Source: Escherichia coli
GTDB taxonomy: Bacteria; Pseudomonadota; Gammaproteobacteria; Enterobacterales; Enterobacteriaceae
DNA length: 57,499 bases
Assembly (NCBI RefSeq): GCF_003334315.1
Contig: NZ_QOWR01000027.1
Strand: one strand, 5' to 3'
Position 1 is the stretch's first letter. Each line of letters begins with the position of its first letter. The position numbers are program-made. Positions 44,501 through 50,500 of this stretch are shown here, piece after piece.

Positions 44501-47500
44501 ACCGGGAAACGCAAATATTTTGTACGAACCTGATGGCGGAACTGGTGTCCATCGCAGGTGAATACTGGCTGAGTGATCAAATCCCAGCAGAATTTTATGG
44601 CAAAGCGGCGCGACTGCAGTTAGTCGAAAACGCTTTGACCGTTCAACCGTTAAATTGATCCCTTTTTAACAAGGAATTTCTATGGCACGCATTATTGTTG
44701 TTACTTCGGGCAAAGGGGGTGTTGGTAAGACAACCTCCAGCGCGGCCATCGCCACTGGTTTGGCCCAGAAGGGAAAGAAAACTGTCGTGATAGATTTTGA
44801 TATCGGCCTGCGTAATCTCGACCTGATTATGGGTTGTGAACGCCGGGTCGTTTACGATTTCGTCAACGTCATTCAGGGCGATGCAACGCTAAATCAGGCG
44901 TTAATTAAAGATAAGCGTACTGAAAATCTCTATATTCTTCCGGCATCGCAAACACGCGATAAAGATGCCCTCACCCGTGAAGGGGTCGCCAAAGTTCTTG
45001 ATGATCTGAAAGCGATGGATTTTGAATTTATCGTTTGTGACTCCCCGGCAGGGATTGAAACCGGTGCGTTAATGGCACTCTATTTTGCAGACGAAGCCAT
45101 TATTACCACCAACCCGGAAGTCTCCTCAGTACGCGACTCTGACCGTATTCTAGGCATTCTGGCGTCGAAATCACGCCGCGCAGAAAATGGCGAAGAGCCT
45201 ATTAAAGAGCACCTGCTGTTAACGCGCTATAACCCAGGCCGCGTAAGCAGAGGTGACATGCTGAGCATGGAAGATGTGCTGGAGATCCTGCGCATCAAAC
45301 TCGTCGGCGTGATCCCAGAGGATCAATCAGTATTGCGCGCCTCTAACCAGGGTGAACCGGTCATTCTCGACATTAACGCCGATGCGGGTAAAGCCTACGC
45401 AGATACCGTAGAACGTCTGTTGGGAGAAGAACGTCCTTTCCGCTTCATTGAAGAAGAGAAGAAAGGCTTCCTCAAACGCTTGTTCGGAGGATAAGTTATG
45501 GCATTACTCGATTTCTTTCTCTCGCGGAAGAAAAACACAGCCAACATTGCAAAAGAACGGCTGCAGATTATTGTTGCTGAACGCCGTCGCAGCGATGCAG
45601 AACCGCATTATCTGCCGCAGTTGCGTAAAGATATTCTTGAGGTCATTTGTAAATACGTACAAATTGATCCTGAGATGGTAACCGTACAGCTTGAGCAAAA
45701 AGATGGCGATATTTCTATTCTTGAGCTGAACGTGACCTTACCGGAAGCAGAAGAGCTGAAATAAGCCCGCTGTAAAAGCGCATTTATCTTCAAGGCAGAG
45801 TTATCTCTGCCTTGAGTTTTTCATCCCTCTCATCCACGTTGTGGTAAAGCGGCGAGTATTCTTGCTGATACTCCTCATTGCTATTTCCACCTCCCCCTTT
45901 ACACCTTAAGGCTGTTCCCACGCACAAAACAAAATGTTTATGCCTGGTTGAGTAAATAACCTTATTGTTAGTATGGATATACTGGGAGATGATAACCCCG
46001 CAATTTCATTATTCATTGTTCTCCCATAGGATGAGGTTTCCCGCCGTAACTGGCGGGCTTTTTTTGCCCCAGAATTTTCCCTTTCAACATCCTGTAAACG
46101 AAAACTGCGCCGAAGCGCAGTTTAATCGTTGATGGTCAGAACGACCAGTTCACACCAGCCACCGCGTTCCACGGGGATTCCACACCGGCACCATGGCTAT
46201 ACCCCACCCCGAGATGTCCGCTAAACGTACTGCTGAATGAGGCTTTAATAGCTGCCTGGTATATTCCACGTCTGCCCGACAAATCATTGACGAAATTACC
46301 GTCATTATTCACCTTCACCCGGTTATCATCGACAAATTCTTTGCGCACAGCCGCCTTCAGCCAGGGTTCATTTCCATACCGTTCCCCAGGCGCATGTTGT
46401 AACTCAGCGTTGCACCCAGTTCACGATATATACTGCGGGTATCGACTGATTTCGATTCCATGCCATTGGATAAATGATAGTAGCGTCTAAGTGACCTAAG
46501 CTCTGCTGCAACATCAGCCCGCAGGCACCAGACCAGGGGATTCATCCTGAAGAGACAGCGCAGGTGTATTGTGTTCACCGCTCACCAAAGACATCATGAT
46601 GAAATGATGATATCCCGCATAAGAAAGAGGCATTTTTTACACGCAGTGCGCTGAAGTGTAGTTGGATAAAAAATCACTCTTTTCTGATAATACTGTCGTA
46701 CGCTTATCTTTCGACAATGAGGCCGTCGGCAAAATAAAATGACTAATGTAATCGTTGCTGATGAATATCTTCTGCTCACATAAAAATCACACAATAATAT
46801 TGATAAATCAGATTATCTTACCTTTACAACATTGCGTTAACAGTCAATGACACTTCTTGAATAAATATATTGTCAATCAATGAGTTATTCCTCATTTAAG
46901 ATTATTCTCATTCACGTAAAAAACATAATTCCTATCATCACAGCCACGCTCATTTTGAATTATCTGAATAATAGCGAGCGTTCTTTAGTTAAGCAGATCT
47001 TAATTGAAGACGAAATTATTGTGTGTGCAACTTACTTAATACCGGACATCTAAGTTGAAGAAAAAAATACTTGCCTTCGGGCTTATCTCAGCATTGTTCT
47101 GCTCCACGCCAGCGATGGCGGATATGAACCGCACCACGAAAGGTGCATTGCTAGGCGCAGGCGTTGGTTTACTTACTGGCAATGGTGTTAATGGCGTACT
47201 GAAAGGTGCAGCTGTTGGCGCTGGTGTTGGTGCAGTAACAGAAAAAGGCCGCGACGGTAAAAATGCGCGTAAAGGTGCAAAAGTGGGTGCCGCCGTTGGT
47301 GCTGTCACTGGCGTTCTGACCGGCAATGGCCTCGAAGGGGCGATTAAAGGTGCCGTGATTGGCGGTACGGGTGGTGCAATTCTGGGTAAAATGAAATAAG
47401 GAATGATGATGAAAAAATTTGCTTTACTGGCGGGCCTGTTTGTTTTCGCACCAATGACCTGGGCGCAGGACTACAATATTAAAAACGGTTTGCCGTCAGA

Positions 47501-50500
47501 AACCTATATTACTTGCGCAGAAGCCAACGAAATGGCAAAAACTGACAGCGCACAGGTTGCAGAAATTGTTGCGGTAATGGGTAATGCCAGCGTTGCCAGC
47601 CGTGATTTAAAAATTGAGCAATCTCCGGAACTGAGCGCCAAAGTGGTAGAAAAACTGAATCAGGTTTGCGCTAAAGACCCGCAAATGCTGTTGATCACGG
47701 CAATTGATGACACCATGCGTGCTATCGGCAAAAAATAATATTTCATATGTACCGCGTCGATGAATACGACGCGGTTTTTTAGCTAACGGCGGGATCAGAA
47801 CTTATATTTCAGGCCCACCATCACTGCGGTGTCATTGTAGCCATTATCACCCAGCTGCACGCCCACATTTCCCAGACGCTGGCCGCTGGATTCAGGTTGC
47901 CATTTACGCCAAGTTTAATTTCCCCCAAATTACTCGCCCCATCTTGTTCGACTTTCACACCGTTCATTGAGACAGCAAAATCTTTACTGTTATGGATCCA
48001 GTTCATTTCAACAAAAGGTTCAAAGTCGTCACCGTGCGGACCGCTGTTTTTCTCCTGAGTACGAATAAAGGTGCGGAAGCCGAGTCGGGTCTGGATGTTG
48101 TTATTTGCGTCATTCTCAATACGTGAGCCATTGGCTTCCGTGTGCGCATTATGATCGACGCCCATCCAGATAGCCTGTGCCTGTGGCTGGAAGATCCACG
48201 TATATTTCGCCGCTTCCAGACCAAAGGATTTATTCAGGGCAAAACCGTAACCCGCTTCCAGCGAGACGGTTGCACCTTTCGCGCTATAGGATTCATAGGC
48301 TAATTCATCCCCTTTCACCGAGTTTTTAAACCAGCTATATTGCGCCCAGGAGTCAATGTATGCGCCTTTTTTACTGATGTCATCGGCAAACCAGGTGGCA
48401 TACAGCCCTGCGCTATAGCCTCTGACACTCCCTTTCGAACGATAATCCGACACGCTGGAATGAGTTAAGTTGTAGTCGCGGGCATAACCAGCCATCACTC
48501 CCAAACGCCAACTGTCACTATCGGTAAAACCACCGGTTAACAGATCGCCCCCTAACTGCGAGACGTAGCGATGCGAGGTCGTTCTCAACTGTCCGTTGCT
48601 GTCACGCCAGGCATTATGCCCGCCAATTTGACGTAGCCAAAGTCGGCTTGAACGCTCCTGTTCAGTTACAGGATCGATGTAGCGCGTTTCACCCGCACGG
48701 TCGTTCAGACGCATAACAAAAAGAGTGTTAGCAGCTGCCAGGTTAGCGACGTAACTTCCAGCTTCGGGGCGCAGGACGGGGGTAGGCGTTTCTGTTGATT
48801 CTGAATTTCCCTCTGAGCTGTTATCCTCCTCATTCACTGACTGATAACTTGTCAAATACCAGTTTTTGCCTTGTTGTTTTAGTTGATATTCGAAAGCTCC
48901 AGCTGCAATCCTTGCATCACCTTATCTGAAGGCATCTGCTGGAGATTCATCGCCATTCACAGTTATGAGTTCGATCCCGTTTAGCGTGGCCGCGCCGCTT
49001 CCTCCAGCATTTTTCACATAGACGGTAGTTGAACCCGAAGTATTACCCTCAACAATAAGTCTGTCCGTAGCCGATTTATCATCACCTAATACGGTGCGGA
49101 TATTAAGCTGACCATTATTACCGACATAATTACCTTTTACGGTTAATGTTTTTCCTTGGGTAAATGTTTGACCATCATCATACGAAAGATTGATAATACT
49201 GTCTGAATTAGTCAGATGGGTAACAACGGAGTCATCTTTCATATTCCAGATTGTATTTTCTGAAAGCTTCAGCGTGGTTGTGCCGCTGACGAGTTTAGTC
49301 GCTCCATTTAGAATAGAGTCGGACGAAATTATGTTTAAGTCACCTCCAGTATTATTAACCAGAACATTATTACCAGGTGTGATAATACTTCGATTAAGGA
49401 TACTTACATCCGTTGTAGTTTTGTTAACATCAATACTATCCAAAGCACTTGAAAGTTCAACACTTAATAGTGCTATTTTGGCTTGAGAATCGATATTTGA
49501 TGCATCAATTGATATTCCTTTATCTTGTTTTGATACCGCGGTGACATTGGAAAAAAATAACTCTCCACCATTGTATATTTTTGCAATGGGGGCTTTAGTG
49601 CCTGTTGTTGTAATAGAACTATTTTTTATATCAATGTTACCTTGTCGAATAGCAACTGCATAACTTCCATCAGCCACAGTTTCAAGTGCCACATAATCTA
49701 AATTAATATATGCTTTTTTCCCATTAGCATAAGCACCATAGCTATTAATGCCATTAGTTGTTATGGAACCACCATTCATTTTTAAATCAGCACGGCTAAT
49801 AACTTCGTAACTGTTAGAATCACTAACTTCATCATCTACAGCATCGACACATGTTCGAGACTCTCCAGGACTTGAACATGCAAGAACACCTACTGCATTT
49901 TCCCCAGAGGTAACAATGTTCGTTTTATCTGTGGTTTCAAGACGGGTGTTATTTACCATCTTTTCAGAATCATTAACCTGGCTTAAAAGTCCCGCTGAAT
50001 ATGCCCCACCCGACTCGACTGAATTATCACCATTCATAAAGATGGTGCCACCAAATTCACTGACTACTGCGCTGGCTGTTATCCCTCCATTTTCTTTGTC
50101 AGATACGCTTCCAGAGGTCTTAATATCGCTATCGCTTATATATAATACTTTGTTTTGACTATCAACAGAAATACCATAAGATCCATCACCACTAGTCATC
50201 ACACTGGCATTATTTATATATCCAGTTACACCGTCATCCACTTTCACAGCATGGCTTTCGTCTTCAGTGGTTAGATACTCTCCATTACTTATCGGATTAT
50301 TATCTTTGATTTCAATCGGCGATTCTTCATCAGTCATATAGGAAATTATACTATAATCATCCAACAATTGTGTTGCATATGCATTACCCACCGCCAGAGC
50401 AATAAGTCCCAAACTAAACCCGGGGAGTTTTTTCAGTTTCATAGATTAACCATCCATTCATTGGATTAACAAACATTCCTGGTCAAATAACCTATGAGCT

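Follow-up and report, generated by a model that had tools for sequence, protein, structure and literature searches.

The 57,499-nucleotide stretch of Escherichia coli DNA considered here (contig NZ_QOWR01000027.1 of assembly GCF_003334315.1), called the window throughout, carries two broken autotransporter genes, ycgI and ycgH, close to the min operon. The gene order in this part of the window is minC-minD-minE, ycgI', a 120-bp open reading frame (ORF), ymgJ, ymgI, ymgG, ymgD, ycgH', ymgF and pdeG. A first-pass annotation, made from the sequence alone, had described ycgI and ycgH as decaying surface-protein genes with ymgG and ymgD lying between them; this arrangement is correct, and ymgI and ymgJ are found in the same interval. 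Positions 43043-56043 are collinear with MG1655 1214000-1227000 taken in reverse complement, there being 11 substitutions and no insertions or deletions, and strain CP53, a pig isolate, has the window base at every comparable substitution. The window is a natural phylogroup-A relative of K-12. That it might be MG1655 itself was ruled out by the 11 single-nucleotide polymorphisms (SNPs), all the comparable ones being common to CP53. The MG1655 annotation already lists ycgH (b4491) and ycgI (b4521) as pseudogenes.

The organization of an undamaged ycgH product is seen in the 887-residue YcgH of strain 5283, which has Pfam matches to AC_1 (residues 410-526), Pertactin (431-536) and Autotransporter (PF03797; 606-865, E 1e-40), along with a TIGR01414 match at 434-887. 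The window copy is flagged 'frameshifted; internal stop' by the Prokaryotic Genome Annotation Pipeline (PGAP). It reads as a 506-aa ORF at 48922-50442 on the minus strand, which has MKLKKLPGFSLGLIALAVGNAYA as its signal peptide and is separated by one TAA from a 344-aa ORF in the same frame at 47821-48855. Cleavage of the signal peptide, between MKLKKLPGFSLGLIALAVGNAYA and TQ, was read by eye from the sequence. The break between the two ORFs had been taken for a frameshift near 48925. Alignment with the intact orthologue did not bear this out and revealed a single in-frame nonsense codon, TAA in place of CAA (lesion 1, Table 1), which is codon 507 in the window and codon 512 in strain 5283. 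Because this stop falls within the autochaperone domain, and the barrel of the intact protein lies at 606-865, the entire barrel, i.e., the whole translocator, is lost.

The other frameshift proposed at first, near 47885, is real, is the only one in ycgH, and lies about 15 bp from the predicted place, where a net 1-bp deletion (lesion 2) shifts the last 25 codons. By itself, lesion 2 costs the protein its last beta-strand and C-terminal aromatic motif: read in frame past the lesion, the gene ends ...WACSWVIMATMTPQ and a stop, and the expected terminus, ...NVGVQLGDNGYNDTAVMVGLKYKF and a stop, is found only in the shifted frame. Thus the earlier statement that ycgH keeps its signal peptide and its ...GLKYKF terminus is right for both, the latter being readable in another frame only. 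A 15-bp in-frame length difference, for which the window has the short form, is non-disruptive and is also present in the intact 33F4 allele. Of the features that define the type Va family, the window ycgH still encodes a signal peptide, passenger and autochaperone, and a barrel domain that the TAA cuts off and the frameshift breaks; what it lacks is the in-frame C-terminal aromatic beta-signal. The gene derives from this family and cannot encode a functional member of it. Against the intact orthologues found at this locus in other strains its reading frame is disrupted, and the disruption recurs in independent genomes, which makes it a pseudogene.

Diagnostic short BLAST queries were run against 5426 complete E. 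coli genomes, and gave approximate counts for the allele states of ycgH. The TAA allele, as an exact 81-mer, was found in at least 1493 genomes. At the site of lesion 2, the coding strand reads GGGA AAT in the window and GGGG AAT in MG1655, and the in-frame alleles have GGGGG AAT or GGGGT AAT. Two in-frame alleles, TGGGGTAAT (the GGGGT type) and TGGGGGAAT (the synonymous G5 type), were present in 1947 and 1447 genomes, respectively. The frameshifted G4 allele of the MG1655 type, TGGGGAAT, was present in 1573, and the frameshifted GGGA allele of the window type, TGGGAAAT, in 60. The 1-bp deletion at 47870 is accordingly carried by 1633 genomes, with the window-type 81-mer in only 60 of them.

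Individual strains display several combinations of the two lesions. TW11681 has G5 and CAA, and over the last 900 bp, the barrel, its sequence departs from that of MG1655 by the extra G alone. GSH8M-2 has G4 and CAA, an intermediate state; MG1655 has G4 and TAA; the window and CP53 have GGGA and TAA. The most parsimonious order of events begins with a synonymous GGT to GGG change, which would have created the G5 run near the ycgH 3' end in the phylogroup-A lineage that includes K-12. Most likely the frameshift then arose through loss of one G from this short run, and the contraction from G5 to G4 would have put the last 25 codons out of frame, so that the protein lost its final beta-strand and C-terminal aromatic motif. 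This motif is needed for insertion of the autotransporter barrel into the outer membrane. The change of CAA to TAA at codon 507 would have followed, cutting off the whole translocator, and last would come a neutral G>A change at the old frameshift site, position 47870, in the window's lineage. Loss of the T from GGGGT, also considered as the source of the frameshift, is less probable than contraction of G5 to G4, since the TW11681 barrel equals the MG1655 barrel plus one G. The lesions, their order in time and how often they occur in the population are regarded as shown. The ycgH product, if made, would be a passenger fragment that bears a signal peptide and has no barrel, and we infer that such a fragment would have no route to the cell surface and that the adhesin function is lost.

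The second relic, ycgI, carries the PGAP flag 'frameshifted; incomplete; missing N-terminus'. Its 344 bp match the TIGR01414 barrel model, 432 positions long, from 365 to 432, in agreement with the first-pass view that only a barrel C-terminus is left, and it has, besides, a 1-bp frameshift of its own near 46372. The frameshift site reads ATGGAAA-TGAAC in the window and ATGGAA(G/A)TTGAGC in strain 5283, ypjA and the O157 copies; other strains have 345-bp remnants that lack this frameshift. Of the 114 codons of the window remnant, only the last 70 residues are in frame. No NCBIfam equivalog reached its cut-off with the remnant, which falls short of a full-length YpjA/EhaD family member.

In strain 5283 an intact 3405-bp gene (about 1134 aa) lies between minE and ymgJ, where the window has the ycgI remnant, and the remnant shares 95.6% identity with the 3' end of that gene. 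When window positions 45765-46700 were compared with the strain 5283 locus, the alignment broke at 8610/11700, marking a deletion of 3089 bp. Lost in it were the 29 bp that precede the ATG, the start codon with the signal peptide, the passenger and the greater part of the barrel, and its junction has 1 bp of microhomology. The ancestor of ycgI was a ypjA/EhaD paralogue of about 1134 aa, destroyed by one illegitimate deletion. An 81-mer that spans the junction is present in 4522 of the 5426 genomes (83%); the deletion happened once, long ago, and about 83% of E. coli genomes carry it today. The gene annotated as ypjA beside ymgJ in some strains might have resulted from a rearrangement with the true ypjA locus, a possibility ruled out because in strain 5283 its other flank directly adjoins minCDE.

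Two ORFs lie at or beside the ycgI junction. A 73-aa ORF that crosses it (46357-46578, minus strand) and overlaps the annotated 120-bp ORF joins the former upstream sequence to barrel codons read out of frame, and probably has no meaning. The 120-bp ORF is conserved: copies of it, at 10652-10771 and 11735-11854 in locus coordinates, lie about 64 bp upstream of ypjA and of the intact ycgI-type gene of strain 5283, respectively. Both copies fall in a block of 250 bp upstream of the gene, over which the ypjA and ycgI-type paralogues have 91.6% identity. The ORF and its block could be a leader or regulatory region that was duplicated together with the gene.

Table 1. Features of the ycgI-ycgH interval and the comparison gene ycgV, in window coordinates
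Feature	Position	Strand	Description and basis
ycgI pseudogene	46136-46479	-	last 344 bp of a ypjA/EhaD-like autotransporter gene, ends ...NWSF and stop; MG1655 b4521; PGAP
ycgI secondary lesion	46371-46372	-	1-bp deletion (frameshift); alignment with 5283, ypjA and O157 copies
ycgI deletion junction	46479-46480		3089-bp deletion; BLAST against strain 5283 locus
120-bp ORF	46514-46633	-	'hypothetical protein'; transferred annotation; adjoins ycgI-type gene upstream in intact strains
ymgJ	46594-46779	-	annotation transferred from other strains' loci; adjoins ycgI-type gene upstream in intact strains
ymgI	46880-47053	+	intact small gene; annotation
ymgG	47055-47399	+	intact small gene; annotation
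ymgD	47403-47738	+	intact small gene; annotation
ycgH pseudogene	47795-50442	-	classical type Va, AIDA-I-type autotransporter, 2648 bp; MG1655 b4491; PGAP
ycgH out-of-frame 3' end	47795-47869	-	encodes last beta-strand and C-terminal aromatic motif; frame-2 translation, alignment
ycgH lesion 2	47870-47873	-	net 1-bp deletion; alignment with intact orthologue
ycgH lesion 1	48922-48924	-	in-frame nonsense TAA; alignment with intact orthologue
ycgH T7 tract	49551-49557	-	in passenger, in frame in window; T8 or T9 in three other strains, a site of repeated indels across the population; tract scan
ycgH length polymorphism	50092-50093	-	15 bp, in frame, short form in window; alignment
ycgV	14103-16970	+	intact autotransporter, comparison gene; uninterrupted ORF

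Across the species the ycgH locus holds two allele classes, YcgH and ECIAI39_1904. At the nucleotide level their barrels are 98-99% identical, their signal-peptide regions about 87%, and their passengers (gene nt about 150-1800) only about 50-60%. The locus thus combines one translocator with two types of passenger, a mosaic pattern of the kind that recombinational swapping of passengers typically leaves. Intact alleles of the YcgH class were found in strains 5283, 103 and 33F4, and intact alleles of the ECIAI39_1904 class in E01 and TUM1226. Four of these five strains with an intact ycgH-locus gene also keep a full-length ycgI-type gene; five of the sampled genomes retain a full-length ycgI-type gene, and in four of them neither autotransporter is broken. 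In a published survey, ECIAI39_1904 and ypjA were absent from sequence type (ST) 131 and present in ST38, ST405 and ST648, a placement which suggests that the lineages retaining these genes are ones of extraintestinal pathogenic E. coli.

Elsewhere in the species the ycgH locus has been inactivated in other ways. A 1-bp deletion at nt 180 of the second class is carried by 1404 genomes, including O111 and O103 strains, and a 735-bp deletion with several further lesions is found in 1038 genomes, including the uropathogenic E. coli strain F11. Together with the K-12-type lesion, these three independent clade-level lesions account for 4075 genomes (75%). Sporadic lesions in sampled genomes include tract changes (A6 to A5, (TA)4 to (TA)3, and T7 to T8 or T9), extra nonsense codons, a 98-bp deletion, and insertions of the insertion sequences (IS) IS1, IS2 and IS903B; the 5' part of ycgH has been lost to IS903B in CP53 and to IS2 in TW11681. 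Strain e1-39 is called 'frameshifted' by PGAP, whereas alignment shows two nearby stops, at codons 22 and 25. The first-pass annotation had spoken of ongoing pseudogenisation of surface adhesins. Pseudogenisation is confirmed, as the MG1655 annotation agrees, and 'ongoing' is apt only at the level of the population, where sublineages continue to acquire IS1, IS2 and IS903B insertions and extra frameshifts, and where the window's own G>A at 47870 belongs; the inactivating lesions of the window are old and fixed across clades.

Taken together, the window very probably holds two dead type Va adhesin relics that flank the conserved ymgJ-ymgI-ymgG-ymgD segment, ycgI having been lost by one deletion and ycgH stepwise, by decay and not by a reversible switch. 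The last point bears on a suggestion, also made at first, that frameshifts at homopolymers or short repeats would hint at phase variation. Under that explanation ycgH would be a contingency gene, switched by slipped-strand mispairing at G5/G4, T7/T8/T9 and A6/A5. There is indeed a one-G difference within a G run behind the frameshift of the K-12 clade, several independent frameshifts in other strains sit in T7, A6, G6 and (TA)4 tracts, and an extra base was seen around T7 in about 5 of 40 sampled full-length matches (81-nt window), about one in eight. However, one-base indels concentrate in homopolymers for mutational reasons alone, and the ycgH tracts are only 5-7 nt long: a tract scan gave T7, A6 (four copies) and (TA)4 as the longest, and no long simple-sequence repeat in the gene. 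The comparison with intact orthologues that had been proposed for deciding the matter does put the frameshift in a homopolymer, though a mere G5 run, and it shows that the other break is no indel at all but a nonsense codon, which slippage cannot reverse. Further, G4 is nearly co-extensive with TAA (1633 vs 1493 genomes), as fits a single origin, and every examined strain with a tract indel also carries irreversible lesions, i.e., nonsense codons, IS insertions or deletions. Neither a long repeat in the gene nor, among the strains compared, reversible switching free of other lesions, the marks of a phase-variable locus, was found for ycgH. We consider phase variation very improbable; ycgH is a case of decay in which short runs served as the usual mutational weak points.

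It had been allowed from the start that intact orthologues might show the reading frame to be continuous, in which event the apparent damage could be an artefact of sequencing or assembly. The frame is in fact the same on both sides of 48922-48924, yet the stop codon there interrupts it, and the gene is still broken. The same TAA recurs in 1493 independent complete genomes and the same 1-bp deletion in 1633, more than 1400 in each case and MG1655 among them; the window alleles are therefore not sequencing errors, and an artefact can be dismissed for practical purposes. A retained partial function, with the 506-aa fragment or its transcript kept for a periplasmic or regulatory role, seems to us very improbable. 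Its attractions are that the ycgH promoter is still bound by RNA polymerase, that the 5' ORF is unbroken in the window, and that dN/dS, the ratio of nonsynonymous to synonymous substitution rates, is not elevated. Yet sublineages lose the 5' part, with nothing to suggest constraint, through deletions and through IS903B, IS2 and IS1; no export route is known for a passenger fragment that lacks its barrel; and ycgH, treated in the literature as a pseudogene, is routinely replaced by metabolic engineers, who use it as a neutral integration site without reported ill effect.

The independent inactivation of the ycgH locus elsewhere in the species points to relaxed or negative selection on the adhesin, not to a reversible switch, as the reason, we infer, for its repeated loss. 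A stronger form of this proposal, in which the ycgH and ycgI-type loci were repeatedly and adaptively lost, with selection against adhesin display in most niches and with G5 and T7 as preferred sites of inactivation, is in our judgement unlikely. Three founder lesions that cover about 75% of genomes are evidence of recurrence, not of selection. Between intact alleles dN/dS is 0.02 for the barrel, indicating strong purifying selection, and about 0.7 for the passenger. For the window barrel against intact alleles it is 0.06-0.09, with few substitutions, a value that fits recent inactivation relative to the divergence of the alleles without proving neutrality. The secondary lesions in sublineages support neutrality of the ycgH relic.

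Several considerations weigh against simple decay by the steps given above. The low dN/dS of the window barrel means that its substitutions do not demonstrate relaxed selection. The promoter of the relic may still be active, in which case a truncated passenger fragment may be made and have a residual role: published work reports an in vivo chromatin immunoprecipitation peak of sigma-S RNA polymerase at the ycgH 5' end, and, in the ymgF-ycgH spacer, a promoter for the sigma-70 holoenzyme found in vitro by SELEX (systematic evolution of ligands by exponential enrichment), with H-NS binding. The hexamers given in the RpoD SELEX paper (TTGACA-19-TATAAG) were searched for in the window and gave no match. 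The direction of the G5 to G4 change rests on parsimony, and TW11681 could be a G4 to G5 revertant. Some of the T7/T8/T9 differences in public assemblies could be sequencing errors. Finally, the allele counts come from exact-seed BLAST with short queries, and the four frameshift-site alleles add up to 5027 as against 4882 genomes matched by the 81-mer.

Between the two relics, the YmgG protein has the same accession in all the sampled genomes, and YmgD in all but one, across phylogroups. This suggests that these small envelope proteins are under strong constraint while both flanking autotransporters decay. The genes ymgD and ycgH converge on a gap of 56 bp, which holds a strong GC-rich hairpin followed by a T run (47751-47775), plausibly a shared bidirectional terminator. 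Promoter and terminator scans gave nothing other than this candidate, and an Rfam search of 45500-51300 found no RNA family.

Other observations concern the wider locus. In FRIK944, the one O157:H7 genome examined, the ymgJ-ymgI-ymgG-ymgD-ycgH block beside minE is replaced by a segment with ompT, a hydrolase gene and ISEc8, and a different ycgI-type remnant, of 747 bp, is retained. The gene pdeG (ycgG), for a cyclic di-GMP phosphodiesterase, is annotated as a pseudogene or truncated in three sampled genomes, ETEC4071, HR12-1 and FDAARGOS_1257, one having an internal stop with IS1 adjoining and two lacking the N-terminus; decay at the locus is therefore not restricted to autotransporters. The 11 differences between the window and MG1655 all fall inside 7.7 kb (43629-51296), with none in the 4.7 kb beyond, and this clustering may mark a small recombination patch, or may be a lineage marker, in an otherwise K-12-like chromosome.

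The essentials of this locus are already known from the standard K-12 annotation, and the importance of the present results is small. What they add is descriptive: the nature of the ycgH lesions and their order, with contraction of a G run, then a nonsense codon, then a substitution; the identification of ycgI as the tail left of a ypjA paralogue by a single deletion, which about 83% of the species has inherited; and the loss of the ycgH locus at least three times at the clade level. The locus offers a small, clean example of recurrent adhesin loss. It also calls for caution, as pan-genome and virulence-gene screens may score ycgH and ycgI as present from partial matches.

Compared with known systems, the window is closest to MG1655, whose ycgH (b4491, formerly b1169/b1170) and ycgI (b4521, formerly b1173) have the same locus, gene order, TAA, 1-bp deletion and ycgI junction, and the same pseudogene lengths of 2648 and 344 bp; a window SNP, at 47870, falls exactly on the old frameshift site and turns GGGG AAT into GGGA AAT. 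Intact YcgH (WP_001522908.1, 887 aa, strains 5283 and 103) and the ECIAI39_1904 allele (882 aa, E01 and TUM1226) are encoded at the same position between ymgD and ymgF. They share with ycgH the plan of signal peptide, passenger, autochaperone and barrel, and are about 98-99% identical to it over the 3' 900 bp, the barrel, whereas the window copy is interrupted. Nucleotide identity of 95.6-97.4% with ypjA 3' ends shows the ycgI remnant to be paralogous. Over 1021 aligned residues, K-12 YpjA and the intact ycgI-type protein of strain 5283 have about 80% identity, and PGAP names the gene for the latter ypjA; unlike YpjA/EhaD, the strain 5283 protein is the product of a paralogue at another locus, beside minE, and is shorter (1134 vs 1526 aa). 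The first-pass annotation had contrasted the relics with an intact ycgV 30 kb away, rightly so: ycgV is an uninterrupted 955-aa ORF, 30.8 kb away, and only 2 nt and 1 aa set it apart from its MG1655 counterpart. YcgV has been linked to biofilm formation in the literature. It shares the TIGR01414 barrel superfamily and the chromosomal neighbourhood with YcgH, but the best subfamily matches of the two differ, which places YcgV in a different subgroup.

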